Notes: generated by a model from the sequence alone, not told the origin. A stretch of 64,000 nucleotides of DNA from Thermoprotei archaeon (GCA_003649205.1 QMRC01000001.1:285081-349080); one strand, 5' to 3'. Numbered from the stretch's first letter, positions 5,148-22,092 are shown. Numbers and translations: made by a program.

Positions 5148-6425
5148 TTGATGACTGTAGATGTCTCAGCTAAGTTGAGGGAGAGAAAGGAGAGAATTGA
5201 GAGAGTTCTCACGGGTAAGGTGCCTGATCGTGTCCCATTTATACCTTCCTTCCACTTTTTCCCTGCTAGGTACATTGGTGTGAGTTACGCTGATTACTCG
5301 TCAGATTACAGGTTGTTTGTAAAGGCTGTGTTTGCTGTCTATAGGGATTTCGACTTTGATCTAGCTGGTTTAGCTCTTCCTGGAGCAGGCATGACTCTAC
5401 CGCTAAACTTTATCTTCATTGAGAGGTACCCAGATCTAGCAACAACAACATTCGCAATTGCGAGACCCTTCCACGATATTCTGAGAGATAAATACACTAG
5501 GTGGCCTGGTAGGGAACTTCCACCTAATGTTTCTGCTCAATTTATTGGGGGTAAGTTTATGGAAGCTGAAGAGTATGATGAGCTTGCTGAGAATCCTATA
5601 GAGTTCATTTCTAGGAAAATTATTCCTCGAGTTTACGAGGCTCTTAGAGACCCTACATCACCTGAAGCTTACGGAGCATTAGTTAGGTTTGGGATGGAGG
5701 TTGTGAAGTTCAGTGGTGCGCTCATGGAGTTAATGACCAAGTTGAGGGAAGAATTGGGATACCCCACAATTCCTCTGGGTATGGGATATGCACCGTTAGA
5801 CTTCATAGCTGATCACCTTAGGCACGTAACTTACACACTTACCGATCTCTATAGGTATCCTGATAAGGTTAAGAGAGCTTTAGACGCTTTAACACCTCTA
5901 ATTATAAAGTGGAGTAAGGCAAGCGTTTCACTACCGCCAAGCGTTCTTGAGGCATTTGATATAAAGATTCCACTTGTATTCATACCACTTCACTTAAATG
6001 AGATGGTTTCACCGAAATTCTTTAGGGAGTTCTACTGGGAACCTTTAAAGAGAGTTATTATAGAGCTTGTGAATGCTGGTGCGATTCCATGGATTTTCTT
6101 TGAGGGGAACTTCACACCATTTCTAGAGTATATCCTAGAGCTACCAAAAGGAAAAATAATAGCCTACTTCGAGCGTACGGATCTTAGGAAGGCTAGAGAG
6201 GTTTTGGGAGATCACGTTATAATCATGGGTGGTATATCACCGGCACTCTGCATCTATGGAACTCCAGAAAAGGTGTTTGAAGAGGCTTGTAAGCTCTTGA
6301 GCGATGTTAAAGAGCCTGGGGGATTCATATTTGCTGGTAGTCGTGTAGCTGGGATACCTGATGAAACAAAGCCAGAAAATCTGAGGGCTCTCATAGAAGC
6401 GGTAAGGAAGTGTGGGAGGTACTGA
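5148..6425 (+). CDS. URO-D/MtaA-superfamily corrinoid methyltransferase, divergent paralog 3
   Basis: Same blocks in diverged form (VPDRVPF, RWPGRELP, FIPLHLNEMVSPKFFREFYW, FFEGNFTPFLEYILELPKG, GTPEKVFEEA...GGFIF). Confidence 0.75.
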   Translation: MMTVDVSAKLRERKERIERVLTGKVPDRVPFIPSFHFFPARYIGVSYADYSSDYRLFVKAVFAVYRDFDFDLAGLALPGAGMTLPLNFIFIERYPDLATTTFAIARPFHDILRDKYTRWPGRELPPNVSAQFIGGKFMEAEEYDELAENPIEFISRKIIPRVYEALRDPTSPEAYGALVRFGMEVVKFSGALMELMTKLREELGYPTIPLGMGYAPLDFIADHLRHVTYTLTDLYRYPDKVKRALDALTPLIIKWSKASVSLPPSVLEAFDIKIPLVFIPLHLNEMVSPKFFREFYWEPLKRVIIELVNAGAIPWIFFEGNFTPFLEYILELPKGKIIAYFERTDLRKAREVLGDHVIIMGGISPALCIYGTPEKVFEEACKLLSDVKEPGGFIFAGSRVAGIPDETKPENLRALIEAVRKCGRY

Positions 6426-6668
6426 AGCTATCACGATACGAGGGGTGTTATCTAGCTGGGAAAGTATTACGGTTATGGTGGGGAGTATTCCATTTCTACT
6501 GTGAGAAGACAGGTACTTGAGGGAGGGGAGGGAGGAGATTTCTCATCGATACATTTACCATGGGTGTCTCTAGTCTTCAAGTAGCTGTGAATTTCCTTGC
6601 TGTGTCTAACAAACAGAGTTTTCAAATACTTTGTGGAGACTAATGACCTTATGGATGCTTGAGGTGAA

Positions 6669-9109: not shown

Positions 9110-9221
9110 GGACCCTGAAGATGGAGTTGAAGGTGTTTGTAAGTGTTTAGTTCTCTGATCCTTTCATATTGTGAACATCTTAGCGTCTAGTGTGGGGCTA
9201 CTCTTCGGCATCCTTGAAGTG

Positions 9222-10055
9222 CTATGTTCTTTTGCTTTGTCTTGGTTTGATGAGCCATGTGTCGAGTTCTTCTATGTACTTGATCTCGTATCTCTGCTTT
9301 ACCTGGTTTATTTTCCTCTTTATCTTGCTGTAGATTCCGTCATCTCTTACTATCTTTCCGTGCTGTTCTAGGTCGAGGAATTCTCTCTCTAGGTTTTCTA
9401 TGGCTTTTTCTGCTTCTTCTGGTGTGTAGGCTCTTATGTCTAGGTCTATTTCATCTGATAGGAGGAGGAGGTATCGCTGTATGCTTGGTGGGGGGAGGTT
9501 TTCTGCTATGAGGATTACGTCTATGTCGCTCCATGGTCTCCATATACCTTTTGCTCTTGACCCTATGATGGCTGCTAGCTTGATCTTTATGCCTTTCTTC
9601 TCTAGTTCTTGAAGCCACTTAAGTACCTCCCTATAGGCTTCTCTTCCATTCTCTAGCTTTCCTATGTCTGGTGTGCAGTCGTGTTCTCTTAGCTTTAGGA
9701 ATATCTCCCTTGTTCTGTAGTACATTGTCTCTACTCTTTGTTTGTTGTAGTACTCTTCTGAGATTCCATATCTTTGTCTGGCATCGGGGTACCTGCTTGC
9801 GTAGTAGTGTATTGTGAGTTCACGTAGGAAGTTAAGTTCTTCTGGAGTTAGTTGGTATCCTCTTGCAAGTAGGTGGAGAGCATGCGTTTTCGTAGGTTTG
9901 TATCCTCTCTTTATCAAGAGAGCTTTTAGTAGGAATTCAAGAGCTTGATGGAGATGGAATACTGCGAGTTTGTAGAGTCCTCTAGTTAGGAGGATATCTG
10001 CTGCATCTAGGTGGGAGTAAGCTGATTCCACATACTCATCTACGCTTTGCATCAT
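9222..10055 (-). CDS. HEPN domain fused to minimal nucleotidyltransferase (HEPN-MNT fusion)
   Basis: N-terminal HEPN helices (AADILLTRGLYKLAVFHLHQALEFLLKALL). C-terminal GS-x10-DxD NTase motif (IGSRAKGIWRPWSDIDVILIA). Confidence 0.75.
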   Translation of the reverse strand: MMQSVDEYVESAYSHLDAADILLTRGLYKLAVFHLHQALEFLLKALLIKRGYKPTKTHALHLLARGYQLTPEELNFLRELTIHYYASRYPDARQRYGISEEYYNKQRVETMYYRTREIFLKLREHDCTPDIGKLENGREAYREVLKWLQELEKKGIKIKLAAIIGSRAKGIWRPWSDIDVILIAENLPPPSIQRYLLLLSDEIDLDIRAYTPEEAEKAIENLEREFLDLEQHGKIVRDDGIYSKIKRKINQVKQRYEIKYIEELDTWLIKPRQSKRT

Positions 10056-10160
10056 CCATCTCTAGCCCCTATCTACTTTCTCGAGGTAGCTCTAGTACCT
10101 ATCTTGAGAGGTGATCTCTTGCAGGGTTTCCCTTCTTACTACCTACCTTATCTATGTCTG

Positions 10161-10571
10161 TTAGTAGCTATGTCTTGTCTTGAAGCCTAGTTCGTCTCTA
10201 AAGCACCAGAGTCCTTCTCCGAAGTCTAGGAGTACGATGCCTAATTTACCTAGGAGTTTATCGTTTAGGAGTACAGTGCTTATGCGTGAGATATAGGGGT
10301 ATGCTGGTACTGGTCCGACAACTCTATCTTCTGTGACTACGTACACGTTGACTGGTTCAACACATCTTACTAGGTTTATGGTAGAGCCATCGGCTAGAAT
10401 GCGTTTTACGGTTATGGTGGGTGGTTTATTGCCGAGGAGTTCTCTTGCTAGTGGTTCAGGTAGCATGATCTCTGGTTCGGCACCAATGAAGCCACTGTTG
10501 GCGAGTGCGAGGGTTTCAATGCATTTACTCTCTACTTGGAGTCTTACCCTTAATCTCAGCACGTGGCTCAC
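10161..10571 (-). CDS. Retropepsin-like (clan AA) fold protein with NSG in place of the catalytic DTG/DSG
   Basis: ETLALANSGFIGAEPEIMLPEPLARELLG aligns with the ...DTGA....lp..la..LG pattern. C-terminal VLLNDKLLGKLGIVLLDF resembles the second retropepsin block. Confidence 0.35.
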   Translation of the reverse strand: MSHVLRLRVRLQVESKCIETLALANSGFIGAEPEIMLPEPLARELLGNKPPTITVKRILADGSTINLVRCVEPVNVYVVTEDRVVGPVPAYPYISRISTVLLNDKLLGKLGIVLLDFGEGLWCFRDELGFKTRHSY

Positions 10572-11178
10572 CTAATAGCTCTGGTGGTAGGATGGTGAGT
10601 ATAGCGAACTTTGGTTCGAGTACTTCGGGTGGGAGTACTGTCGCAATGAGGTTCTCCATTGAGAAGCCCCATCTGTAGTGGTTGCTGAGGTTTATCTTAA
10701 GGTTTACTTCGAGATTGTTAGTTGGTATGTACCATCCTTACCTGCACTTAGTGAGCTTGGACTTGGGTTAACCTAGTCTGCGATATTATTACTCATTAAT
10801 GAATTGGTATTGCAGGGTACATAACGTAGTGTCTTATCAGCAAGATGGTGCTCATCTGCTCTTTACAGGAAGTTTGCACTAGAACAGGGATTAGAATAAG
10901 GTAGTAGGTACTGAACGATGAGGGATATACATGGAGTTTAGACTACACATGATCTACAGAGCAGCCTTAGTACTCGATGTTCTAGGGATTTCACACTAAT
11001 AGCATACAGCAGATTACTTACAGCACACATAGTACGCAATGCAAGACACGGAACTAGTGAAACATCTGTGAAGGGATCAAAATGACCAAGAGAACAAGTC
11101 CTCTTATCCACTGGAAGATAATTGAGAGCACGTTCCTGTCATAGCTTTGAAGCTTAGGGGCCTGGTGAGTGAGAGCCA

Positions 11179-11676
11179 TTGTGGTATTCGGTCTGCAGGG
11201 TGATTGGGTTAGTTGTAGCTGTACTTATTTTGTTTTTATGTTGTATTTCTGTGGTGATTGGTGTGGGTGTTATTGAGAGGGTGAGGATTTATCTTGAGGA
11301 TGCTTGGGAGTTCTATAGGCGTGGTAGGGAGGAGCTTTTGAGAGGTCTTGAGAAAGGATATGTGTATGAGGTGAGGGATGGTGCTGAGAAGCTTTGGAAT
11401 GCTGTTGTTCAGGCTACTAATGCTCTAATTCTTCATCTCTTAGGTTTGGTTCCTGCTAGTCATTGGGAGTGGAGGAGGAAGTTGATGGAGCTTGAGGGTA
11501 GGTTTGAGGAAGTTGGTAAGCTTGGTCTCTGTGATAGGTATTGTGCGAGGGAACGTCATCTACGTGGTATGACGTTTTATGAGGGTATAGTTGATGAGGA
11601 TTTGCTTAGGTATGAGGTGCAGAAGGTTGAGAGGTATCTTAGGGATGTTGAGGATCTAATTCGTAGGTTAAGGTAG
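11179..11676 (+). CDS. PaREP1-family (HEPN-related) protein
   Basis: YLEDAWEFYRRGREELL...VRDGAEKLWNAVVQATNALILH matches the PaREP1 helical pattern. The hydrophobic N-terminal 35 aa may lie upstream of the true start. Confidence 0.6.
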   Translation: MWYSVCRVIGLVVAVLILFLCCISVVIGVGVIERVRIYLEDAWEFYRRGREELLRGLEKGYVYEVRDGAEKLWNAVVQATNALILHLLGLVPASHWEWRRKLMELEGRFEEVGKLGLCDRYCARERHLRGMTFYEGIVDEDLLRYEVQKVERYLRDVEDLIRRLR

Positions 11677-11746
11677 TACGCTGCTCCTTGACTCTTAATT
11701 GAGATCTTCTACTCTATCTGTTGAGTAGTTGTTGAGGGATTTTTCC

Positions 11747-12160
11747 CTATACGTAGGTGTGTACTTTGTATCTCTTTTCCTGGTCTTTCCATGGTTTTAG
11801 GTAGTTGAAGTAGAGGTATTCGTAGAGGTTGAGTTCATTTCTTGCCCATATTACTACGTGGTTTTTAATTATTGATATCTGGATGTGGAGTGGTAGTAGT
11901 TCAAATACTCTGAGGTCGTATTTACTGAAGTCTAGTGGTACTTCTCTCCATGCTTCCTGTATGAGCTGTATTCCTTCGTCTGGGTTTTTCCTTGTTTCTG
12001 GTACTACGAGGCATATGTCTATGTCTGATCGTGGTGTTGCTTCTTTGCGTGCATGTGAGCCGTAGAGTAGTATTGCTTCTACTTCTCTGTGTTTTTCGAG
12101 GAATTTACTGAAGGCTTCTCTAACTGTCTTGATTATTGTCTCGATTTCTTCTGTAGCCAT
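11747..12160 (-). CDS. mntA: Minimal nucleotidyltransferase antitoxin (MntA-type)
   Basis: ILLYGSHARKEATPRSDIDICLVV (GS-x9-DxD). Overlaps the upstream DUF86 gene by 28 nt. Confidence 0.8.
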   Translation of the reverse strand: MATEEIETIIKTVREAFSKFLEKHREVEAILLYGSHARKEATPRSDIDICLVVPETRKNPDEGIQLIQEAWREVPLDFSKYDLRVFELLPLHIQISIIKNHVVIWARNELNLYEYLYFNYLKPWKDQEKRYKVHTYV

Positions 12161-12573
12161 TTCTTAACTACCTCACTGAACTCTACTACGGAATTTCTTA
12201 ACTTAAGTATGCTGGTGTAGGCTAATCTATCGTCTATGCCATTGTACCTATGTACCAACACGTTCCTGAGACCATTTAGTTCACGTAGTTTTCCAAGTAG
12301 TTCATCCGTGATCAATCCTAGCTGCTTTAGGGTGTGTAGGTTTGTGTAGTCGTCTTTAACGACTTTACCCTCGTCTCTCACCATCATTGCGACAATATCC
12401 ATTATGCAGTCAGCTAGTTCCTGTACCACTTTGTACACTGCTTTCTTAGTTTTTACGTCTCTCAGAAATTCCTCTATGTTGGGTGGTATCCACTCCTTGA
12501 GTAGTGTTAGGCATTCGTGTATGAATTCCAGCTTCTCTTCGTATCTCTTTATGCGTTCGGTATCTAGTTTCAT
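12133..12573 (-). CDS. hepT: HEPN/DUF86 RNase toxin (HepT-type)
   Basis: Rx4HxY motif present (GLRNVLVHRYNGID). Size and pairing with the MNT gene are typical. Confidence 0.85.
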   Translation of the reverse strand: MKLDTERIKRYEEKLEFIHECLTLLKEWIPPNIEEFLRDVKTKKAVYKVVQELADCIMDIVAMMVRDEGKVVKDDYTNLHTLKQLGLITDELLGKLRELNGLRNVLVHRYNGIDDRLAYTSILKLRNSVVEFSEVVKKWLQKKSRQ

Positions 12574-13671
12574 GATACTTCCTCTCTGATTTCTTGGATT
12601 ATGTCTTTTGGTTCTATGTTTAGTGTTTGTTTTTGTACCATGGTTCTTATTGTCCAGTAGTGTGCTGGAAGTTGGTATGCTGTGTCTTCTCCGATCCAGT
12701 ATGTCTTACTTGGTTTCTTGTCTAGCCATTTGCTGTATAGTGGTGTTACTATGTTGTTTCTCAGCATGTAGTCCCATATTGGGTGTAGTTCGAGTTCATC
12801 TATGTTGTCTAGTGTTTGCTTTAGTTCCTGTAGTACCTGTATTGGTGGTTTCTGTTTTTCTCTGCAGTATTCCTTGATTGTTGTCTTCACTATCTCGATT
12901 ATCTTCTGAAGCCAACTGCCTATGTTCCATTTCTGTATGTGTAGTTCGTATATTGCTCTTGGGTTTCCTCCTGTTAGTTGCCAGAGTTGGTTGTGGTTTA
13001 GTGGTGTTTTTAGTTTGTTCAGTAGTTCATCATGTGCCTCTCTATCTAGGTTCCATATCTGGTACATGAGTATGTTCTTACCTTCTTCTCTCTTGAAGTG
13101 TTTTTGCTGCTGTTTGTTCGCTTGTTAGTAGGATTACGTGTACTTGACATCTGTGCTCGTGTGCTATGTCGTAGATTTCCTTGCTTAGTCCTGTTACTAG
13201 GTCTCTTATCGTTAGTCTGTACCTGTTTAGTGGTACTGTTACTTCATCGAATATGAGCACTAGTTTCCTTCCTTTGAGGTTTAGTCTCTTGGCTATGTAC
13301 TTGACGATGTTGTAGAGGTGGAGTAGTAGTTTTGCTCTATCTCCTACTAGTTCCTTGACTAGATTTTCTAGGGCCTCTACTACGCTGTCTTCGGTTGCTA
13401 TGTAGAATTCCTCTCTTACTGCTGCTTTTGGTAGGTTCATGTACGTGATCAGGATTTCTGGGTCTTGTTGTAGTGCGTGTGTTGTCGCTCTCATGAATTC
13501 CGTTTTTCCGCAGCCCCATGGTCCTGTTATTACGAGGTTTAGTGAGTGTTCTGGTTTTGTTTCTTCGCCGTACCTTATTAGCTCTAGTAGTTTCTCGTAT
13601 TCTCGATCTCTATCTACGAAATTTATGTTGAGGTCTGGGACTATGTACTTGTGTAGTTTCGTGGTTTTCAT
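12570..13671 (-). pseudogene. Arch_ATPase (PF01637-like) paralog interrupted by a frameshift
   Basis: ORF 13078-13671 carries the Walker A (GPWGCGKTEF) and stops at ...TAAKTLQERRR*. In the next frame the same DNA reads HFKREEGKNILMYQIWNLD, collinear with the intact paralog (HFLREQGKNMFTYLMWNLS). The shift maps to a T5/A5 run at 13101-13105. Confidence 0.75.
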
Positions 13672-13871: not shown

Positions 13872-14186
13872 ATGAACGATTCCTGTAGGCACATTGTCTC
13901 AGCTAGAGGTTGGGGTCCTGATTTCTCAGCTAAGGACTTCGTGGAGCTAGCTGTTAAGCACGGTGTTGTGTCTAGTGAATTAGCTAGGGAGATCATTATG
14001 GCTATTCGCTTGGGGAGTATAATCGTTTACAGGTACCTAGGTATTAACTATGAGGAGCTCTATAGGGGGGTTCAAAAGCTCACTACATTAGCTAGGGATT
14101 TTGAGAGGGAGGTAGTTAGCTTCCTTAGAAAGGTACTGGGTATCTCGCGAGTGAGTTATCTAGGTGTTCTCCTCTATAGTCTCTAG
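13872..14186 (+). CDS. Degenerate DUF86/HEPN remnant
   Basis: DUF86-like C-terminal half (HGVVSSELAREIIMAIRLGSIIVYRY) with the Rx4HxY site destroyed. N-terminal half missing and no partner NTase. Confidence 0.4.
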   Translation: MNDSCRHIVSARGWGPDFSAKDFVELAVKHGVVSSELAREIIMAIRLGSIIVYRYLGINYEELYRGVQKLTTLARDFEREVVSFLRKVLGISRVSYLGVLLYSL

Positions 14187-15311
14187 TACCTTTCTCGGTG
14201 TTGGTTTTTCTCCGGTTTCAAGTGCTGTCTTCAGTATCCAATAGTAGATTGGTGTCTGGAATGCGTACTCTCTACCAATCCATGGCTCTCCTCTAGGTAT
14301 CTTCGATAGCTTTCTAAATCTCTCATCGATGTTCATCACTATGTTCTCCTCTATCAACCTCCTAGATACTATGTACTCTGGTAGCTGAATACCTGGTTGA
14401 TATGGCTTTACACAATCTACACACTCAACTACTTCCCTTAGATAGTTCTCTACACTTAGATCTTGAGCTAACTTAATGAGCGGTAGTACCTTCCCTATCT
14501 TAGCACTTAGGTACCGATCTAGATTCCACCTCCATGCCCTTAACTCAGCTACTTCTCTCGGATTTCCTCCTGTTACCTTCCACACTAGCTCGTAATCTAA
14601 TGGGCACTCTAGCTTTTGGAGTAGTTGCTCTGTTGCTTGTTTACTAAGATTCCACATCAGGTACGTGAACATGTTCTTTCCCTGTTCTCTTAGGAAGTGC
14701 TGAACTGCTGTCTGATCACTAGTAAATGCTATTGGGTACAGGTACTCTAGCTCAAGTTCATCCCTTATCTCAAAGATCTTGTAGCTCAAGCTACTAACGA
14801 AGTCCCTAATGGTTACTCCATACTTCTCAAGGGATTTAGTAACCTCATCTATCAGCAATATCACTTTTGCACCTCTTACTCTGAATCTCTTTGATAGTTC
14901 TCTGAGGAATGTGTAGAGCTGTATTGGTACCTTAGCTACGTCACCTAGTACGTTGAGTACTATCTCCATACACGTCTCCACTACTCTCGATCTAAGTGGT
15001 TGAAAGACCTTACTTAGGTCCTGCTCTGTTAAGTCCATGTATATCGCTACGAAGTTCCCATAGCTGTCTAAGGCATGAGCTAGTGCTCTCGCGAACTGAG
15101 TTTTCCCACAACCCCACGGTCCTGTCACTACAAGTAGATGTTCGTAACCTCTCTCACGTATGTGCTCCTGAAGTAGTGTCTCAACTTCGTACTCTCTATT
15201 CACGAACTCTATCCCAAGATCAGGTACGCGGTACCTGTACAGTTTACTCACTACATCACGCATCCCATACCTCGTCAATGCTCTACTCACTCCCCATGCT
15301 TTACACCTCAA
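14160..15311 (-). CDS. Arch_ATPase family P-loop NTPase (intact paralog)
   Basis: Walker A GPWGCGKTQF and Walker B ILLIDEV. Conserved blocks MWNLS, GGNPRE and WIGREYAFQTPIYYW are shared with three other copies in the window. Confidence 0.8.
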   Translation of the reverse strand: MRCKAWGVSRALTRYGMRDVVSKLYRYRVPDLGIEFVNREYEVETLLQEHIRERGYEHLLVVTGPWGCGKTQFARALAHALDSYGNFVAIYMDLTEQDLSKVFQPLRSRVVETCMEIVLNVLGDVAKVPIQLYTFLRELSKRFRVRGAKVILLIDEVTKSLEKYGVTIRDFVSSLSYKIFEIRDELELEYLYPIAFTSDQTAVQHFLREQGKNMFTYLMWNLSKQATEQLLQKLECPLDYELVWKVTGGNPREVAELRAWRWNLDRYLSAKIGKVLPLIKLAQDLSVENYLREVVECVDCVKPYQPGIQLPEYIVSRRLIEENIVMNIDERFRKLSKIPRGEPWIGREYAFQTPIYYWILKTALETGEKPTPRKVLETIEENT

Positions 15312-15494
15312 TCTAGCTTAAGTACGTTGTTACCTTGATCCTCACTACATCTCCACTGTGATGTCCACTCAGTACCTAGTGCACGATCCTGTCTCAGGAT
15401 TTTTATAGGTGTGTTAGTTCTGATCTCTCGGGAGGACTCCTCGGTGAGGACCTAGTTCTCGGGCTTCGATGATCCGAGGGCCGGGCGGCTTACC

Positions 15495-16061
15495 TCACTT
15501 CTCCTCCTGTTCCTGTAGCAGATCCAGTAGTGTCACTTTCTGTGTTGTCTCCCTCTTGAGGACCCTCTCCACGAAGTGATCTCGAACCGGTTTGTAGACG
15601 TACTCAAAGAACTTCTGTGGATCCCTCAACACAGTTGTTGGAAACTTCTTCACGTACTCAACAGCCTTCTGCCACACTTCATCCCACGGTGCTATAGCCT
15701 CTACCTTAGCCCTGATCTGCCTATCAAAGTCTTCTGGTCTCTGCTCCTTACCACCCATCTCAAACCAACCACTTGGACCTACCGGTACCTCCTCACTACC
15801 TGGGCCGAAGACCTTCACCATACTCCTCCCACCACCTCTAGTCTCCTCACCAGGTATGTAGAACCTCCTACCACTCCTCGATACCTTACTCGACTGAGGA
15901 CCATAGTACTTCAACCACGCGTAGAAGATCGCCCTATTGAGTCCAAAGCTCTTAGCCTTCTGTAAATCACCTGTCAGTACGTAGTACCTCGCTGCCTGTA
16001 GCAAAGCCATAACCTCAAACCTACCAATCTTCCTCTCATCCCTAGTACTCAAGGTAATCAC
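15495..16061 (-). CDS. Hypothetical protein
   Basis: 188-aa ORF with coding-like composition between ATPase paralogs; no motif recognised. Confidence 0.45.
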   Translation of the reverse strand: MITLSTRDERKIGRFEVMALLQAARYYVLTGDLQKAKSFGLNRAIFYAWLKYYGPQSSKVSRSGRRFYIPGEETRGGGRSMVKVFGPGSEEVPVGPSGWFEMGGKEQRPEDFDRQIRAKVEAIAPWDEVWQKAVEYVKKFPTTVLRDPQKFFEYVYKPVRDHFVERVLKRETTQKVTLLDLLQEQEEK

Positions 16062-16193
16062 CCTACTTCAGTGAGATGTACGTATCTAAAGTCTTCTCCT
16101 ACATCTACTCAACGTAGTACCTCACATGTCAAAGACTGAAGCTTCACCTAATTTCGCATTCTATTTAAGTCCTCCACCTCCTCTACTCCCTTC

Positions 16194-16246
16194 AGGTGAT
16201 GAGGTTCGTTAGGACTGAACACTGATGACCGCTCGCGACCCTGATT
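16194..16246 (+). ncRNA. C/D box sRNA
   Basis: GTGATGA(16196-16202)-GGTTCGTTAGGA-CTGA-ACAC-TGATGA-CCGCTCGCGACC-CTGA(16241-16244); both guides exactly 12 nt. Confidence 0.8.
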
Positions 16247-16253
16247 TACTTCC

Positions 16254-17375
16254 TCACGTACTCACTTCCCTCAATATGGTTTCAGACGTAGGTTTCTGCT
16301 CTTTCTCAAGTATAGCCCTGAAGATGTAGTAGTAGAGAGGTACTTGCCAAGCCCATTCCCTACCAATCCACTCCTCTCTAGGCACTTCACTTAGTAAGTG
16401 ATTAGTAGGCTCTAGCGGTATGACCATGTTCTGTCTCAGCAACTCCTGCGTTAATGCTACTTCAGGTAGCTGCTGCTTAAGCTCCTCAGTAATAGGTATA
16501 GGAGCTAGAGAATCAATTTCCTCAACTACGCTCCTCAAGTACTTAAGCAACACATCACTACGCCTAATCATTGAGTAGAGTGACCAACACCTCACAATTT
16601 CCCTCTCTAACCACCTCTCTACATCCCATGCATAGACATTCCTCAATTCGTAGATCAATCTTGGATTACCACCACACAATCTCCACAGGATCTCATAATC
16701 TAGCGGGCACTTAACCTCCTCAAGTAACCTCATGAAAGCACTCTTCGATAAGTTCCACATCTCATAGATAGATAGTGTCTTACCGACTTCCCTCCTAAAG
16801 TACTGAATCAGTGACAGTTCACTAGTTAGAAGTACTGTAACAATATTCCTGAGACCAAGCTCCCTTCTCCACTCATGAATAGCCTTATCCAATGCTGAGA
16901 CGTAGTCCCTAATACTGATCCTATATCTGTCGAGAGATCTAGTAACCTCATCCATGAAGATAACCAAGTACCTACCAACTAGCTTGTACACCTCACATAG
17001 CTTCCTCAACAGAGCAAATACCTTGAGAGGAAACTTAAGCAAGTCCTCACACACCCTCTGAACTAACTCAAGGAGTAACTCCTTAACACCATACCTTGCG
17101 TAAATAGCTTGATGCAGCTCACTTTGAGTCAGATCAACATATAGGAAAACGAAGTCATTAAGCTCCTCTACAGCATACGTCACAGCTCTAGCAAATTCAG
17201 TCTTCCCACAACCCCAAGGACCATACACAACGTAATTCCAGGAAACACCCCTAAGAACCCAATCAAGAACATACCTAACCTCCCTCTCACGATCAACAAA
17301 GTAAATACCCAACCCTGGCACCACATACCTACCTAAGCAACTAACAACAACCTCAGTAACATCACCACAACACAT
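16254..17375 (-). CDS. Arch_ATPase family P-loop NTPase (paralog)
   Basis: GPWGCGKTEF, VIFMDEV, MWNLS, GGNPRL, WIGREWAWQVPLYYY. Confidence 0.8.
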   Translation of the reverse strand: MCCGDVTEVVVSCLGRYVVPGLGIYFVDREREVRYVLDWVLRGVSWNYVVYGPWGCGKTEFARAVTYAVEELNDFVFLYVDLTQSELHQAIYARYGVKELLLELVQRVCEDLLKFPLKVFALLRKLCEVYKLVGRYLVIFMDEVTRSLDRYRISIRDYVSALDKAIHEWRRELGLRNIVTVLLTSELSLIQYFRREVGKTLSIYEMWNLSKSAFMRLLEEVKCPLDYEILWRLCGGNPRLIYELRNVYAWDVERWLEREIVRCWSLYSMIRRSDVLLKYLRSVVEEIDSLAPIPITEELKQQLPEVALTQELLRQNMVIPLEPTNHLLSEVPREEWIGREWAWQVPLYYYIFRAILEKEQKPTSETILREVST

Positions 17376-17432
17376 CTAGACAGCACCAACCCAAATAAGA
17401 CAACAACAGAACTTTACCCTTACCCCCAACAA

Positions 17433-18064
17433 CTAGGAAACCTTCAACGGCTTCACAACCTCAAGAAACCTCCTAGCCTCCTTAACAGAGAAAGTACACA
17501 GCTCGTACTTAGGAGTAACCCTGTAAGCATCCATGTAAGGACCCTCCATGTGAAATCTCTGAAATCCTAGTAGCTGCAAACACTCCAACACTATCTCAAG
17601 CAGTCGACGATTAGTATTGACAAACTTCAACTTAACCCTCCTCTCAGTATAGGTCCTACTACCTCGCCTCCTCGTATAAGTATAGAACTTCAGATGTCCC
17701 TCCGCATCAAAGAAACCACGAACAAACTCTCTAGCATAATCCTTTGACCTCAAGACTAGCGACCTTAAGGCCTCTAGATCACGCCTATACCTCACAACCC
17801 ACTTACAGAAATCTAGGCTAAAGGTCACAACACAGTACACAGGTTTCTTACCAGGTTTTCCACTTGATCTAGGGGGTAATGGTACATCACGGTGCGCGCT
17901 GCAACATACTTCCTAACTATGGTCATGTAGTACTCTGCTACCTTTAGACACGTAATCAGCAATTCAACACGCTTAAGCCTAAAGTTAACATATCCATCAC
18001 CTAGCAATACACCAAGCACATAACACATATCAGGGTTTTCAGGTATGCTCACCATGCGTCCCAC
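17433..18064 (-). pseudogene. Free-standing double-motif LAGLIDADG homing endonuclease-like gene, split by a frameshift near 17825-17840
   Basis: ORF 17825-18064 has motif 1 (YVLGVLLGDGYV). ORF 17433-17840 has motif 2 (FVRGFFDAEGHLKF), followed by NRRLLEIVLECLQLLGF as in I-DmoI-type enzymes. The two ORFs overlap by 16 nt in different frames. Confidence 0.65.
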
Positions 18065-18178
18065 CTTCCAACATCATAGGGACGCAATGAATTATAAGGG
18101 ACTCAACATTATGACGCAATAATGGACGCAGTTAATTAGTGCGTCAAGTATATAAGGAGCGGTGGAACGTACTGTATC

Positions 18179-18748
18179 GTGCACTCTACCTTCAGGATAA
18201 GGTGTACACAGAAGAAAGCTGATGGGAGTACAGAAGTCATTGAATTAGAGGTTAGTGTAGAGGATCTGGAGAAGCCAGAAGTAAAGAAGCTACTTCAAGA
18301 CTTCTTAAGCCATTACTTGAGAGATTACAGCGGAGTCGAGATTAGAGTTGAGAAGAAAAGCTATCACACGCAACGCAAGGACTTTCACGTAGAAGCATTG
18401 AAAAAAGCAGCTGAGAGAGGTTTAGTCTTGAATTACGATGATGGAACCGTAGTGATAGATAGGGAGAACTCAAGAATTTACTTTTGGCCTCGAAACTGGT
18501 CTCAAACAACAGCTTCCAGAATGTACATTAAGTACGAAGATCTCTACATCCTATTAACCAAAGTCAAGGCTAGACTAGGATTGAGTAGAGAGATTAATTC
18601 CAGTACCATCATCACTAAAGTACTTGAAGAAGTGAAAACAAGTAGTAAGACATCAGCACTACTAAAGAGATTGCTGAAATACAGCGTAGTGAAGAGGTTA
18701 CTAGTCACACTACTACAGGAAATAGTACAGGGAAGGATTACCCTGTAA
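18179..18748 (+). CDS. Hypothetical protein, paralog of the 19824-20396 product
   Basis: Shares blocks V.DRE..RIYFWPRNWSQTT / YVDRVEGKMYVKPRGWSWTT and the C-terminal SALLKRLL....LLVTLLQEIV / RALTRLL....LLLVEFLWKVV. Confidence 0.55.
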   Translation: MHSTFRIRCTQKKADGSTEVIELEVSVEDLEKPEVKKLLQDFLSHYLRDYSGVEIRVEKKSYHTQRKDFHVEALKKAAERGLVLNYDDGTVVIDRENSRIYFWPRNWSQTTASRMYIKYEDLYILLTKVKARLGLSREINSSTIITKVLEEVKTSSKTSALLKRLLKYSVVKRLLVTLLQEIVQGRITL

Positions 18749-18788
18749 AATACACCGAGAATATGTAGGAGAAGTTAGTAGAAGTAAC

Positions 18789-18848
18789 TGGTAGCGGGGG
18801 GTGGATTTGAACCACCGACCTCGGGGTCTCTACGGCGGTCGCGGCGGC
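18789..18848 (-). tRNA. 3' half of split initiator tRNA-Met, with 15-nt complementary leader
   Basis: Minus strand: GCCGCCGCGACCGCC GUAGAG A38 CCCCG AGGUC GGUGG UUCAAAU CCACC CCCCGCU A CCA. It supplies the anticodon-stem 3' strand, variable loop, T arm, acceptor 3' strand, discriminator and an encoded CCA. Confidence 0.8.
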
Positions 18849-18870
18849 CGAGTTTCACTCCACACTTACG

Positions 18871-18889
18871 TGCTTATAAATCTTTCTCT
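18871..18889 (-). promoter_or_regulatory. BRE/TATA promoter of the tRNA 3' half
   Basis: Minus strand AGAGAAAGATTTATAAGCA. It ends 22 nt upstream of the leader and matches 17/19 nt of the element upstream of the 5' half. Confidence 0.6.
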
Positions 18890-18953
18890 TTGCTTTCCCT
18901 CAAGAGTTTGCTTAAGTTCTCTACGTAGTTGTTCTAGGTCTTGGAGAGTTTGG

Positions 18954-19304
18954 TCAAGTACTCTTGCCGAGTTTAGTATTACACGACACGTACCATAGGG
19001 GGTGTTTGCCTTGTCTAATCTTGGAGGGTTTCCTAACGTAGCTTTTCCAGAAGTTTTCTCGTGGAATACCTAATTCCTGACTCCAGAACTCGATAGCTTC
19101 GTCTTCATTCACACCTTCCCAGATCGTTAGGCGACACTTTAGCTCTCTAGGATCAACTTCATAAAACTGCTTGAGACTATAGATGAAGAGCTTTAGTAGG
19201 AGTGGATCCGTTGATGTCAAGGCAACTTTCCTACTTCTACCTCTCTTCGACTTATCACCTTCACACCAGTAGAGCATAAGCCACTCACGCTTAGACAGTA
19301 CCAT
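18954..19304 (-). CDS. Single-motif LAGLIDADG endonuclease-like protein
   Basis: EWLMLYWCEGDKSKRG...VALTSTDPLLLKLFIYSLKQ resembles the second I-DmoI motif region as I recall it (GLYVAEGDKT...NKNKALLEIVSRWL). Confidence 0.45.
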   Translation of the reverse strand: MVLSKREWLMLYWCEGDKSKRGRSRKVALTSTDPLLLKLFIYSLKQFYEVDPRELKCRLTIWEGVNEDEAIEFWSQELGIPRENFWKSYVRKPSKIRQGKHPLWYVSCNTKLGKST

Positions 19305-19827
19305 ATCTACTCAACTCCTCACTACACCTCTTAATGAACATCTCTAGGTTACTTACCGTATGCTGTATCTCCGGTACATGGCTGTAAGGATATAGCCATC
19401 CTACTAAGGTACGAGCAGATACTAGCATTAACCGAAGAGCTTCAGGGTATGGTTTAGCAATGACCATATAGCCAAAGGCCGTAGGTTCACTGCCATTGTC
19501 ACGTAGTAAGCCCAACGCCATTAGACTTAATTTGTCATTGCTGATAGTCCTTGGGTTTCTTGACCTTAGTCTTTCAGGAAGTTTCTTATTAATTTCACGG
19601 CAGTCACATACGCCTTGGTCTATGAGCTTAAGGATGTGCAAGAGCCTCTGTGGGCGCGCATAGCGGAAGTAGGGATACTTGAGAGCTATGTTCCGTTTAT
19701 CGACTGCTTTGCAGCTACAGTAATAGTTGCAGCATGAGTAGACTCCGTCCACAAGTGCTAGCGGTGCACTGCATTTCGGACAGTATGGTACAAGAAAAGA
19801 CCTTATAACTAACTTACACAGCGTCAT
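19291..19827 (-). CDS. Zinc-ribbon plus probable wHTH protein
   Basis: N-terminal CPKC...CCNYYCSC Cys cluster. Overlaps both neighbours (ATGA overlap at 19824-19827; 14-nt overlap at 19291-19304), implying one operon. Confidence 0.5.
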   Translation of the reverse strand: MTLCKLVIRSFLVPYCPKCSAPLALVDGVYSCCNYYCSCKAVDKRNIALKYPYFRYARPQRLLHILKLIDQGVCDCREINKKLPERLRSRNPRTISNDKLSLMALGLLRDNGSEPTAFGYMVIAKPYPEALRLMLVSARTLVGWLYPYSHVPEIQHTVSNLEMFIKRCSEELSRYGTV

Positions 19828-20396
19828 AGTACATCCCTCAGCTCATTCCTAACAACCTTCCATAAAAACTCGACAAGGAGTAGCTTACTACTACTTGAGG
19901 ATAGTAGCCTTGTCAGTGCCCTAGGGCTACTAGGCATAGAGGCAAATCTCCATAACACAGTCTCTACATCTGATATGCTAGAGGCGTTGCGTAGATTCTC
20001 AACGATCTGCTTAACTGTCTCCAGCGATAATGACGCACGAGTGACAGTAGTCCAGCTCCAACCTCTAGGCTTGACGTACATCTTTCCCTCTACGCGATCT
20101 ACGTAAACTTCTCCTGCACTGAGTTGTATTACCTTTATAGCACCTCTCTTGATTTGGTTAAGTAATTTGCGCACCCTAGGATCTTCCAGTGCCTCCTTTT
20201 GTTCTCCCCCTCCTACTGGAGGCTGCACTGACGCTGTACCTAGTATACTAACGAGGATTTGCGAAATGGCGTCGACAGGACCGCGTAGGTGAACTCTGAC
20301 GCCATCCTTCTCAATGGTAACTTCCACTTCTGGCATAATCTGCACCTCTGCATGGTCACTGACGCGCAGGCTTATAAACTTTGCGCATGGTGCCAT
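19824..20396 (-). CDS. Hypothetical protein, paralog of the 18179-18748 product
   Basis: See 18179-18748. The true start may be the internal MPEVEV (about 20336). Confidence 0.55.
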   Translation of the reverse strand: MAPCAKFISLRVSDHAEVQIMPEVEVTIEKDGVRVHLRGPVDAISQILVSILGTASVQPPVGGGEQKEALEDPRVRKLLNQIKRGAIKVIQLSAGEVYVDRVEGKMYVKPRGWSWTTVTRASLSLETVKQIVENLRNASSISDVETVLWRFASMPSSPRALTRLLSSSSSKLLLVEFLWKVVRNELRDVL

Positions 20397-20603
20397 TCAT
20401 AGATAGCTGCTTAGCGCGACCTTGATAAGCGCGAGAACCTTCTTTGAATTCTACATTATGGGATCCGAACACTATGTGGCTAAGTAGCAGGACTAGTAGT
20501 GCTCCGTAAGCTACATGGATCTATATATTGTGAAGCTCGGTTAGCCAGAGAACGATATTTCACAGCATTGAGGTAGGTGAACTAATGGAAAATTAGTGGA
20601 GGA

Positions 20604-20657
20604 GCCGCCGCGACCGCCTTATGAGCCCCGCGGGATACCTGGCTTCCCCACCCCGCT
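20604..20657 (-). tRNA. 5' half of split initiator tRNA-Met (anticodon CAU), with 15-nt complementary trailer
   Basis: Minus strand: AGCGGGG UG GGGA AGCCAGGUA UCCC G CGGGG CUCAUA A GGCGGUCGCGGCGGC. It supplies the acceptor 5' strand, a complete D arm, the anticodon-stem 5' strand and the loop through A37. Confidence 0.8.
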
Positions 20658-20687
20658 GCTATAGCCGGTACTCCTCCTTTCTTCTGA

Positions 20688-20706
20688 TGTTTATAAGTCT
20701 TTCTCT
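20688..20706 (-). promoter_or_regulatory. BRE/TATA promoter of the tRNA 5' half
   Basis: Minus strand AGAGAAAGACTTATAAACA. It ends 30 nt upstream of A1. Confidence 0.6.
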
Positions 20707-20739
20707 GTTTCTTGAATTGTGGCTTCTGGTGTTCTCTCA

Positions 20740-22092
20740 CTATTTGTCTTGTTGGAGTGCTTGCTTTATTGCTTCTAGGGTCTCTGGATCTAGTAGGTTC
20801 TGTGCATACTTCAGTGCTACTGCTGCTAGCTTTCTAGCGTTGTTTCCTGTTAGTTCTAGTACTCTCTTGAATTGCCTATTTGCTGGTTTCGTTATCCCTA
20901 GTACTTGTCTCGTGTACTCGTATGCTCTTCTAACTTCTACGTACTTGCTCAGTCCTGTTATGTAGACGTGTAGGTACTTCCCCTTCTTTAGCCGTGCTCT
21001 CATGTGTTTTGCTATGAGTTTGATCGCTGTGACTAGGCTCATCTCTGTCTGTGTGTACTGTGCTATGTGTAGTAGGTCAGTACGTACTTGTGCTAGTTTC
21101 AGTACTTTTCTTGGCCATAGGTAGCTCGGGTGTGTAGCTACTGCTCTTAGCATGAGTACTAGGCCTCTGTACCTTGCTTGATCTAGGAGTACTAGACGGT
21201 CTTTCTGTATCTCGATTCTTGGTCCTAGTGTTTGCTCTAGTTTTTCTGCCAGTAGTTTACGTAGGTTGTGTGGTAGTCTCGTACTGTACTTTAGCCTTAC
21301 CTCTACTTCTCCTCTTTTGCGTTTTATGGTTTTGAGTATACCATCCCCTATGAGTAAGCCGGCTACTAGTTCCTCTGCTAGGTTCTGTGTTGTGTTTAGT
21401 GTGTGGTGCCAGAGCTGTAGTTTGTTCTCTAGTATGTGCTGTGGAGCACTGTTCTGTAATCTGTGGTCTGTACTGAAGGTTATCGTGTAGCAGGTGTCTA
21501 CTAGATTTCCTGTCCGTATGTAGTACATCAGTGTTCTTGCTTGTAGTGGTGTTCCTAGTAGTGTTGCTACGTAGGTTATGTACTGTGTATCTGATGTTGC
21601 TAGTTGTAGTGCCCCATTTCTTGTACTGAGGTCTGTTAGTAGTAGTCCTAGTAGTAGCTTACGTTGATCGTACTGGTGCTGTATACCTGTTATCTCTGTA
21701 CCTATTCTTGCCTTGACTATGAGTCTTGGTTCTGTTGGTTTTAAGACCTTTAGCTTCTTTACTCTGGTCGTTAGCTTATCTACTGAGGTACGTTCTTCTA
21801 CTCTGTAGTTCTCGATGGAGTTTAGTACCTTGTTGACTGCTATTGCTCGTAATTTGGTGAGTGTGTACCATAGTTCTGCTGGTGTAACTTCGCCTAGCTT
21901 CACCTCTGTGATCCTTCTATCCACTTCCTCTACTATGTCTCGTAGTTGTCTTAGTACATGTTTCCTTATGGTTACTTCGTGGGTGTGGGTGAGTTCTTTG
22001 TTCATGTAGTGTTCTCTGACTTCTACTCTCATGACTATGCTGTTGTTGTCTTCCTGTAGTACTTCTTCTCTTAGCTCTATTGCTGGTTTCAC
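20740..22092 (-). CDS. Large LAGLIDADG-domain protein (450 aa)
   Basis: Two motif-like segments about 100 aa apart (KLLLGLLLTDLSTRNG and ELVAGLLIGDGILKT), flanked by N- and C-terminal extensions of unknown function. Confidence 0.55.
   Translation of the reverse strand: MKPAIELREEVLQEDNNSIVMRVEVREHYMNKELTHTHEVTIRKHVLRQLRDIVEEVDRRITEVKLGEVTPAELWYTLTKLRAIAVNKVLNSIENYRVEERTSVDKLTTRVKKLKVLKPTEPRLIVKARIGTEITGIQHQYDQRKLLLGLLLTDLSTRNGALQLATSDTQYITYVATLLGTPLQARTLMYYIRTGNLVDTCYTITFSTDHRLQNSAPQHILENKLQLWHHTLNTTQNLAEELVAGLLIGDGILKTIKRKRGEVEVRLKYSTRLPHNLRKLLAEKLEQTLGPRIEIQKDRLVLLDQARYRGLVLMLRAVATHPSYLWPRKVLKLAQVRTDLLHIAQYTQTEMSLVTAIKLIAKHMRARLKKGKYLHVYITGLSKYVEVRRAYEYTRQVLGITKPANRQFKRVLELTGNNARKLAAVALKYAQNLLDPETLEAIKQALQQDK

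Follow-up and report, generated by a model that had tools for sequence, protein, structure and literature searches.

In a 64,000-nt stretch of the genome of a Thermoprotei archaeon of the hot-spring type (hereafter the window, to whose full length all coordinates refer unless another locus is named), the initiator tRNA-Met (tRNA-iMet) gene was found to be interrupted in its anticodon loop, with a small open reading frame (ORF) of a tRNA-Met-associated family between the two halves. The region under study, 17433-22092, also carries two double-motif LAGLIDADG-type genes and two paralogous ORFs of about 190 aa (paralogs A and B). The arrangement is best explained by selfish endonuclease-type genes that cluster, and are decaying, around a split initiator tRNA derived from an intron, a reading to which a probability of roughly 0.55 is given, and it suggests that introns with selfish endonuclease-type genes can be a source of split tRNA genes. 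A wider proposal is put forward more tentatively, at somewhat less than even odds: an undescribed homing-endonuclease-type family would colonise the bulge-helix-bulge (BHB) intron at position 37/38 of archaeal tRNA-iMet and, in bacteria, would sit beside tRNA-fMet genes with a group I intron, the window and its relatives (loci L017, L004 and L005) would document how an ORF-bearing intron was converted into a split gene, and split tRNAs would be derived rather than primordial relics. The source is a metagenome-assembled genome (MAG) at 12x coverage with a G+C content of about 44%; its 485-kb contig is ENA ERZ1742239 NODE_2, and its NCBI locus tags begin with DRJ40_.

The state of the tRNA was evaluated by joining its fragments. 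No tRNA was reported in the uncut window by ARAGORN or Rfam. After minus-strand positions 20657-20619 and 18826-18789 were joined, a 77-nt tRNA-Met(CAU) was obtained (ARAGORN, tRNA-Met(cat)), and initiator features, namely A1:U72 and three G:C pairs closing the anticodon stem, were read by eye. The break lies in the anticodon loop at 37/38 or 38/39, the junction being ambiguous, and the two fragments, which together complete the cloverleaf as those of a split tRNA do, lie in order on one strand, with a distance of 1.79 kb between them. After the 5' half comes the 15-nt GC-rich segment GGCGGTCGCGGCGGC, and its exact complement precedes the 3' half (inverted repeat I1), which gives the gene the complementary trailer and leader of a split tRNA. 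In a two-strand cofold, a 16-bp intermolecular helix formed together with the acceptor stem and the anticodon stem, and all four arms were present. This GC clamp differed by one compensatory U-A to C-G change between the window and both L017 and L004. A pyrimidine- and T-rich tract follows the 5'-half trailer. The TATA-like box of the 3' half lies 24 nt upstream of its leader, inside the ancestral frame of the small ORF, and A/T boxes stand at the matching place in L017 (GGTTTAAAAAG) and L004 (GATTTAAAAAAG). Moreover, the TATA-like boxes of both halves share the context AGAGAAAGAyTTATAA, as read by eye. We infer that the halves are transcribed separately. A group I intron between the window halves was considered and rejected, as Rfam detected none and it is the ORF that fills the archaeal introns of the family.

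The ORF between the halves is annotated with 116 aa, and no match was found for it in Pfam, NCBIfam or PDB. One extra C at 18998-19002 breaks an ancestral frame of 145 codons, the end of which (18866) lies over the TATA box of the 3' half; past the stop of the window ORF, conservation of the corrected frame with L004 and L017 continues. The same truncated product is present in a JGI assembly. A search of the protein index gave a 64%-identical fragment, which was located on the AT-rich metagenome contigs L004 and L005, where the ORF lies between tRNA-iMet halves that carry the same clamp and are about 600 nt apart. The lesion of these two copies differs from that of the window and consists of an in-frame TAG and an 8-codon deletion. 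The closest relative, L017, holds an intact 141-aa ortholog between the same halves (71% amino acid and 72% nucleotide identity). The 3' segment, from the ORF to the tRNA 3' end, is 72% identical in the window and L017, and the 5' exon of the window is 94% identical to those of L017 and L004. In a blastn comparison with L017, window positions 20658-20598 and 19294-18786 were aligned. The 1303 nt at 19295-20597, which contain paralog B and a 178-aa gene, had no counterpart in L017 or L004, and no 190-aa or 178-aa gene lies between the halves of L017 or L004/L005. By these alignments, paralog B and the 178-aa gene are a later 1.3-kb insertion or replacement in the spacer; because the halves of the relatives hold only the small ORF, paralog B entered an already interrupted tRNA. 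A separate observation concerns L005, in which the 5' half is immediately preceded by a 90-aa zinc-ribbon ORF (637-909) that L004, nearly identical in other respects, lacks; the weak precomputed match of this ORF is PF22415, a PSV_ORF131-like domain of Pyrobaculum spherical virus.

The distribution of the ORF family, whose members have about 125-145 aa, was examined in genomes and metagenomes, and 54 further loci were found in diverse archaea and some bacteria. A pattern scan of GTDB with one genome per species (about 185,000) gave 11 further loci with 40-50% identity; their hosts belong to Nanoarchaeia, Micrarchaeota, Hodarchaeota, Heimdallarchaeota, Jordarchaeum, Bathyarchaeota and Thaumarchaeota, with one bacterial MAG, and the matches span eight or more phyla. 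A metagenome scan gave 41 further loci. Viral contigs and phage records were searched with the ORF family, the LAGLIDADG gene and the 178-aa protein, and no match was obtained. The dN/dS values of seven informative pairs were 0.08-0.20, showing that the family members are real genes under purifying selection. Attachment to tRNA-Met(CAU), at or beside position 37/38, was seen in at least 46 of the 54 loci. Furthermore, 37 of the 54 loci have GGGCTCATA, allowing one mismatch, in the 300 nt upstream, for which the chance expectation is estimated at about 3% per locus.

The relation between ORF and tRNA takes several forms. In 16 loci the ORF fills a tRNA-iMet intron at 37/38, and excision of a single segment of 380-415 nt restores tRNA-Met(CAU) in silico; three more loci begin like this class on contigs that are truncated or unresolved. 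The ORF of the intron-borne copies starts 12-40 nt after the anticodon loop, and a canonical TGAG central helix of the bulge-helix-bulge was recognised by eye. The TGA stop of these ORFs (L006 6390-6400, L013 6365-6372 and others) often lies within the TGAG strand, again by eye, so that the frame begins about 12 nt beyond the 5' splice site and ends a few nucleotides short of the 3' site. The split-like class with GC clamp consists of the metagenome contigs L004, L005 and L017, in which 603-618 nt separate the exons and their removal restores tRNA-Met(CAU). In 15 loci an intact ORF stands 60-110 nt downstream of a complete tRNA-Met that has an ORF-less intron of 12-49 nt at 37/38; the tRNA of this free-standing class is the initiator, except in L019 and L040, where it is the elongator. 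All 15 intact free-standing copies thus accompany an intron-bearing tRNA-Met, and the sole intronless tRNA, an elongator tRNA-Met in L057, is followed by a disrupted remnant of 58 codons. Partial and sometimes degenerate duplicates of the tRNA-iMet 3' part occur downstream of the free-standing ORF in L009 (about 6400-6500), L011 (about 5210-5245), L012 (about 6390-6470, starting exactly with CATAA) and L034 (about 900-940), and they look like target-fragment duplications left by repair or insertion.

In bacterial loci from metagenomes or MAGs, a group I intron in tRNA-fMet is followed by a 3' exon of about 40 nt and then by the ORF (L010, L041, L044 and L049; L045 is truncated). The Rfam RF00028 scores were 47 bits for L010 (5640-6390), 82 bits for L041 (109-870), 79 bits for L044 (2671-3380) and 97 bits for L049 (2659-3330). 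These introns sit in the anticodon loop, and the ORF begins within tens of nucleotides of the 3' exon. Hence, one gene family accompanies bacterial self-splicing and archaeal protein-spliced introns at the same tRNA site. In three Asgard-like contigs, including Candidatus Jordarchaeum, the ORF lies upstream of the anticodon-plus-3' part of an elongator tRNA-Met (L037 3001-3450, L042 3001-3450 and L014 240-2650; GGGCCC acceptor). The matching 5' part or a complete tRNA is found 0.9-1.4 kb further upstream with another gene between, and these loci may be further split or giant-intron tRNA-Met genes. Distant bacterial members (L051-L055, e.g., L052 2659-3372) have about 220-235 aa, 25-33% identity and, in front of the YWCEGDK domain and fused with it, an N-terminal DNA-binding helix-turn-helix (HTH) domain, HTH_23 (E 4.9e-6); other tRNA genes, read by eye as tRNA-Trp in L051 and L053, follow immediately downstream of them. 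The context of three loci was unresolved. Disrupted copies were found in the window, L004/L005, L007, L016/L050 and L057. The family therefore combines one conserved target site across genomes with a sporadic distribution and independently degenerated copies, both of which characterise homing genes.

Whether the ORF family is of the LAGLIDADG type was assessed at the level of motifs and profiles. YWCEGDK is invariant in the family alignment. The longer form LYWCEGDK resembles the second motif of I-DmoI, LYVAEGDK, and the strand and helix that follow are collinear. A hidden Markov model (HMM) of 46 family sequences matched both domains of I-DmoI with 15.2 bits and an E value of 9e-7 in a single comparison. 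In a search of 177,635 PDB sequences with a 29-sequence profile, five I-DmoI sequences took the third to seventh ranks. Assignment to the LAGLIDADG type is plausible at this level, and the family is not filed as LAGLIDADG. It looks and appears to behave like a small homing endonuclease of this type, the behaviour being suggested by its single target site, sporadic spread, independent inactivations, target-fragment duplications and co-occurrence with an intron that would interrupt the target. From the same features we infer nuclease activity.

The following course of events would account for the series of loci. The family would encode a site-specific DNA endonuclease, probably a homodimeric single-motif LAGLIDADG-like enzyme, and it would be directed at the DNA of the anticodon stem-loop, which is near-palindromic, in tRNA-Met genes without an interruption; an enzyme of this form should be suited to such a target. 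A genome with an intron at 37/38 would be protected, homing would spread the gene, and free-standing copies beside intron-bearing tRNAs may act by 'collaborative homing'. In the lineage of the window, each half would have gained its own promoter, and the tRNA would then be made by trans-splicing. The endonuclease gene would subsequently have decayed, and insertions of other selfish or ORFan genes, among them an old duplicated pair of a LAGLIDADG gene and a 190-aa gene, would have been tolerated in the gap and its flanks. At the start of the proposed series stands a free-standing gene next to a tRNA with an intron; then come a gene in the intron, a gene between the halves and, finally, a decayed gene with new inserts.

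The region had been described in the original prediction, which was made from the sequence alone, as a cluster of three LAGLIDADG-type genes, and all ORFs named there were found where it had placed them. Its frameshifted double-motif copy at 17433-18064 was borne out. The gene consists of two overlapping ORFs, and the downstream one matched Pfam LAGLIDADG_3 (PF14528) with 26.2 bits (E 1e-5), above the curated cut-off of 22.5; the frame-joined product of 210 aa reached 28.9 bits (E 1.4e-6). Both motifs (LGVLLGDG and VRGFFDAEG) are readable, and a weak match to I-OnuI was found in PDB. The two motifs do not lie in a single uninterrupted frame, and the gene is a pseudogene or a two-piece gene. 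Its frameshift falls in a C5 run of the coding strand (G5 on the plus strand, 17872-17876) and is identical in an independent Logan assembly (L002). This frameshift and that of the small ORF (18998-19002) both fall in a C5 run followed by TA on the coding strand (ACCCCCTAG, ACCCCCTAT). Programmed frameshifting was rejected for them, as the corrections needed are opposite, one C more (+1) in the LAGLIDADG gene and one C less (-1) in the ORF, and L017 has an in-frame ortholog.

For the 450-aa protein, which had been named as a second double-motif copy, no match was found in Pfam, NCBIfam, PHROGs, PADLOC or PDB, and a word-index protein search gave essentially self matches, with no homolog elsewhere. 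Its motifs are LLGLLLTDLS and LVAGLLIGDG. Residues 147-269 aligned with the LAGLIDADG pseudogene at 28% identity over 138 aa (BLASTP, E 3e-4), and the alignment is collinear and spans both motifs and the frameshift junction. The Smith-Waterman z value was 6.2, and none of 2000 shuffles reached the observed score. A weak match to the endonuclease subdomain of PI-PfuI (E 0.13) was also obtained. The single-sequence AlphaFold 2 (AF2) model was of low confidence, with a predicted local distance difference test (pLDDT) score of 40; an alpha-beta-beta-alpha-beta-beta-alpha order was predicted at residues 236-320, and Foldseek with this model returned noise only. On the alignment evidence, the 450-aa ORFan is a diverged paralog of the neighbouring pseudogene. 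The earlier description of this gene is hence sustained by homology across both motifs with its LAGLIDADG neighbour, without a significant profile or structure match. The single-motif copy between the halves was present as described, with the ORF, the site and LYWCEGDK. It is not a third copy of the same element, because it belongs to a separate, widespread family tied to tRNA-Met, and no similarity to the two flanking LAGLIDADG genes was detected. Two of the three LAGLIDADG-type genes are thus upheld, one by Pfam and one by paralogy, and the 116-aa ORF is of that type only at a sub-threshold motif level.

The proteins of about 190 aa are true paralogs, in agreement with the original prediction, because they are collinear over the full length and the statistics of three comparisons concur. 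They are 28% identical, BLASTP gave E 4e-7, and tblastn against six frames of the whole window gave E 4.9e-7 over 125 aa. The Smith-Waterman score was 106, compared with 32.5 +/- 5.4 for 2000 shuffles, none of which reached it (z = 13.6). The PR.WS.TT block (PRNWSQTT/PRGWSWTT) and the LL-rich C-terminal helix, which the original prediction had named, were both aligned. One paralog lies outside the tRNA break and the other within it, and by ORF coordinates each is at most 0.5 kb from an endonuclease-type gene, also as predicted. No third copy was found in the window by tblastn. No member of the family beyond these two was found: a word-index search of 5.8 billion proteins gave no further member, and an exhaustive HMMER search of 1.84 billion representative proteins with the paralog alignment gave no further credible one. 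The additional HMMER match P0005, a YWTD beta-propeller repeat protein, was judged spurious, since five of its repeats each match a short GKMY..P..W block. No family match was obtained for the paralogs in Pfam, NCBIfam, PHROGs or PADLOC, and none for the 178-aa protein in these databases or in phage records. A relationship of the 178-aa protein with the zinc-ribbon gene beside the L005 tRNA half was considered and rejected, as the two show no similarity. The duplicated 190-aa module is a lineage-specific curiosity to which no function can be assigned.

The pair of 190-aa genes and the pair of double-motif genes are diverged equally, at about 28% identity, and an old duplication of a two-gene unit (LAGLIDADG plus 190-aa gene) is therefore plausible. 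The original prediction went further and proposed repeated invasion or duplication of one mobile cassette. According to this alternative, all three endonuclease-type genes would be copies that travelled with a 190-aa accessory gene; the equal divergence and the distance of less than 0.5 kb between each 190-aa gene and an endonuclease-type gene agree with it. An old duplication within the cluster is the part of that proposal that is credible. Copies elsewhere and defined ends, by which a mobile cassette would be recognised, were not found: the 190-aa and 450-aa proteins have no relatives in the searched genomes and metagenomes and thus no visible mobility, and a repeat search found no repeats flanking either LAGLIDADG/190-aa pair. 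The orientations, divergent on the left and tandem on the right, also fit neither a simple direct nor a simple inverted copy. Moreover, the middle ORF is dissimilar to the LAGLIDADG genes and has its own tRNA-Met-specific history, with orthologs that lack a 190-aa gene. A cassette of this kind is hence considered unlikely.

According to a further alternative, which is rather less probable still, a virus or plasmid integrated into tRNA-iMet and split it, and the region is what remains of it, with the ORFans and endonuclease genes as leftover cargo. tRNA genes are frequent integration sites, and split tRNAs have been ascribed to mobile elements (PMC3218864, PMC3293823). ORFans make up most of the genes here, which is usual for archaeal mobile elements, a weak PSV_ORF131-like gene adjoins the L005 5' half, and the left flank is an island of HEPN/nucleotidyltransferase and ATPase_2 genes. 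An integrase-mediated split was nevertheless rejected, since the domains recorded up to about 10 kb to the left and right include no integrase, recombinase or transposase, and no att segment is duplicated where the halves abut. The ORF family, the LAGLIDADG gene and the 178-aa protein had no viral-contig or phage match. In addition, L017 and L004/L005 show the same break with the small ORF alone, and the ORF lies within a cleanly excisable intron in 16 loci. The family may instead be a host-beneficial DNA- or RNA-binding factor that is co-expressed with tRNA-Met for processing, modification or regulation and has no nuclease activity, its position reflecting co-regulation; such a factor would agree with the strong purifying selection, the wide distribution, the HTH fusions in bacterial relatives and the lack of significant nuclease similarity. 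Its likelihood is placed as low as that of the cassette, since the occurrence is patchy (11 of about 185,000 species genomes matched in a pattern-limited scan), inactivations arose independently in at least five lineages, the position varies (intron-borne, downstream or between halves), duplicated tRNA fragments adjoin free-standing copies, and the invariant EGDK stands at the site of the I-DmoI catalytic motif. Taken together, the patchiness, inactivations, variable position, duplicates and EGDK form the pattern of a selfish homing gene.

Several points weigh against the explanation of the locus as an intron-derived split tRNA among selfish endonuclease-type genes. No significant match of the 116-aa family to any nuclease family was found in Pfam, PDB or hhalign comparisons, and NCBIfam, PHROGs and PADLOC gave no match. 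In the PDB search with the 29-sequence profile, the E values of the five I-DmoI sequences were only 0.35-0.43. Pfam LAGLIDADG_3 was matched by 2 of 29 members (E 0.17), and the hhalign probability was only 11-17% (P 0.003 at 11%). The single-sequence AF2 model of the frame-corrected ORF (pLDDT 61) departs from the LAGLIDADG topology at its N-terminus and has a strand and not a helix at LMLYWC, and Foldseek found nothing with it. Both frameshifts lie in homopolymer runs of a 12x MAG and may be assembly errors, although they recur in other assemblies. The census was seeded by the YWCEGDK pattern and is biased to conserved members, and the 'intron as immunity' pattern stands without a control frequency of 37/38 introns in ORF-less genomes. 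At the tRNA itself, the cofold junction in the window, L017 and L004 is relaxed and not a canonical 3-4-3 bulge-helix-bulge, and processing at such a junction is assumed. The promoters are putative TATA-like boxes read by eye, and one long precursor with a 1.8-kb intron may take the place of split transcription. Finally, the explanation leaves the 190-aa and 178-aa proteins without a function.

The features of the region are listed in Table 1. Read along the minus strand, the order is the 450-aa ORF, the 5' half, paralog B, the 178-aa ORF, the 116-aa ORF and the 3' half, followed by paralog A in the opposite orientation and the LAGLIDADG pseudogene. Paralog A is divergent from the pseudogene, and 114 nt separate them. 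The 178-aa ORF overlaps paralog B by 4 nt and the 116-aa ORF by 14 nt; because both neighbours overlap it, the three ORFs look like an operon-type arrangement.

Table 1. Coordinates, strand and basis of the features between positions 17433 and 22092 of the window.
Feature	Position	Strand	Basis
Double-motif LAGLIDADG gene, frameshifted	17433-18064	-	Pfam LAGLIDADG_3
Paralog A, 189-aa ORFan, outside tRNA break	18179-18748	+	Paralogy with paralog B
3' exon of tRNA-iMet(CAU), position 38/39 to encoded CCA	18789-18827	-	ARAGORN on joined halves
3'-half leader GCCGCCGCGACCGCC, one side of GC clamp	18834-18848	-	Inverted repeat I1, cofold
Putative TATA-like box TTTATAAG, 3' half	18873-18880	-	Read by eye
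tRNA-Met-associated ORF family member (LYWCEGDK), ancestral frame	18866-19304	-	Frames read, orthologs
Annotated 116-aa ORF between tRNA halves	18954-19304	-	ORF coordinates
178-aa ORFan, Cys-rich (zinc-ribbon-like) N-terminus	19291-19827	-	ORF coordinates
Paralog B, 190-aa ORFan, inside tRNA break	19824-20396	-	Paralogy with paralog A
5'-half trailer GGCGGTCGCGGCGGC, other side of GC clamp	20604-20618	-	Inverted repeat I1, cofold
5' exon of tRNA-iMet(CAU), positions 1-38	20619-20657	-	ARAGORN on joined halves
Putative TATA-like box CTTATAAAC, upstream of 5' half	20689-20697	-	Read by eye
450-aa ORFan, diverged paralog of the LAGLIDADG pseudogene	20740-22092	-	BLASTP and shuffles against the pseudogene

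Further observations concern the surroundings. At about 9200-12600 in the left flank (L001 1044-4395), several pairs of HEPN/HepT-like and nucleotidyltransferase (MNT-type) genes form an island rich in toxin-antitoxin genes. Two archaeal ATPase_2 (PF01637) genes of 383 and 373 aa lie at 14160-17375 as a 2.1-kb tandem unit, with DNA stretches that are 71-75% identical (repeats D2 and D3, spacing 2100). An unrelated 188-aa ORFan is located between them, and a truncated third copy is found further left. From 16000 to 22000 the skews track gene orientation (GC skew -0.35 at 16-18 kb, AT skew -0.35 at 20-22 kb), and long spurious antisense ORFs occur at most genes because of this asymmetry in strand composition.

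The locus was compared with known systems. Introns of the BHB type that bear homing endonuclease genes are documented for rRNA (PMC6125680, PMC4496867). As with the LAGLIDADG enzymes of archaeal rRNA introns such as I-DmoI, the ORF described here lies inside an intron that is removed by the tRNA splicing endonuclease, and beyond the likeness of LYWCEGDK to LYVAEGDK, KVAVTS..LLKLFV.WL is collinear with RLRIWN..LLEIVSRWL. The host gene, however, is a tRNA and not an rRNA, and the family has a single motif in about 125-145 aa with an insert of about 35 residues (the ..FW....IP..NF.K segment). The similarity stays under all significance thresholds, and the LAGLIDADG fold of the family is putative. 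I-Ssp6803I is a PD-(D/E)XK enzyme encoded inside a group I intron. It shares with the present family the tie of a selfish endonuclease-type gene to the anticodon loop of the initiator tRNA, and four bacterial loci combine the ORF with a group I intron in tRNA-fMet. The family shows no sequence similarity to PDB entries of this kind, and its ORF lies in BHB introns in archaea and outside the group I intron, just after the 3' exon, in bacteria.

Split tRNAs are known from Nanoarchaeum equitans, Caldivirga maquilingensis, Staphylothermus and Aeropyrum, and they share with the window the GC-rich complementary trailer and leader and the junction in the anticodon loop. N. equitans splits tRNA-iMet at 37/38, and the tRNA-Lys halves of Staphylothermus are about 4.8 kb apart with genes between them (PMC3218864). 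The halves described here differ in being 1.8 kb apart, collinear and on the same strand, their separate transcription is putative, and their gap holds an ORF whose orthologs are intron-borne in other archaea. A mobile-element origin of tRNA disruption has been proposed (PMC3218864, PMC3293823). In Caldiarchaeum subterraneum, tRNA-Thr is disrupted by a 1.8-kb recombinase-encoding insertion, the element of which is present at six genome sites, and this case was used to argue for recent tRNA gene disruption driven by mobile elements (PMC3293823). There, too, putatively mobile DNA of about 1.8 kb stands between a tRNA fragment and a tRNA gene; the locus described here has no recombinase, and its element is confined to a single tRNA. 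The literature searched, which leaves out most subscription journals, contained no protein-coding archaeal tRNA intron, no report of the ORF motif and no link between split tRNAs and intron ORFs.

Collaborative homing, in which a free-standing endonuclease gene stands next to a gene whose intron lacks an ORF, has been described (PMC3984707, PMC6083498), and the series of loci found here follows a pathway that was proposed for mobile group I introns (PMC3984707). The cases F-CphI/psbA and mobE/I-TevIII are resembled by the intact ORFs downstream of tRNA-Met in 15 archaeal and 4 bacterial loci, in which an intron interrupts the presumed target. Those cases are known from phages with group I introns, whereas the present loci are in cellular genomes, the introns include protein-spliced BHB introns, and cleavage at the site of intron insertion is presumed. 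The explanation preferred here, that of a split tRNA derived from an intron with a selfish endonuclease-type gene, would carry this pathway over to archaeal tRNA introns that are spliced by proteins and to split tRNAs.

Since 2005 it has been debated, mostly on indirect evidence, whether tRNA genes that are split or contain introns are ancient relics or were produced recently by mobile elements. The present locus provides a homologous series for one tRNA at one site, from an ORF-less intron with an adjacent gene, through a gene-filled intron and a gene between halves, to a decaying gene with inserts, and the question thereby becomes testable. If the reading is correct, the ORF family would represent the first case of archaeal tRNA introns with a protein-coding cargo. 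Should the family prove to be a nuclease, archaeal tRNA introns could be mobile by means of their own protein, and a compact new enzyme with a defined and highly conserved target would be at hand. Split tRNAs, including the Nanoarchaeum-type tRNA-iMet interrupted at 37/38, would then be products of mobile introns and not relics of primordial half-tRNAs.

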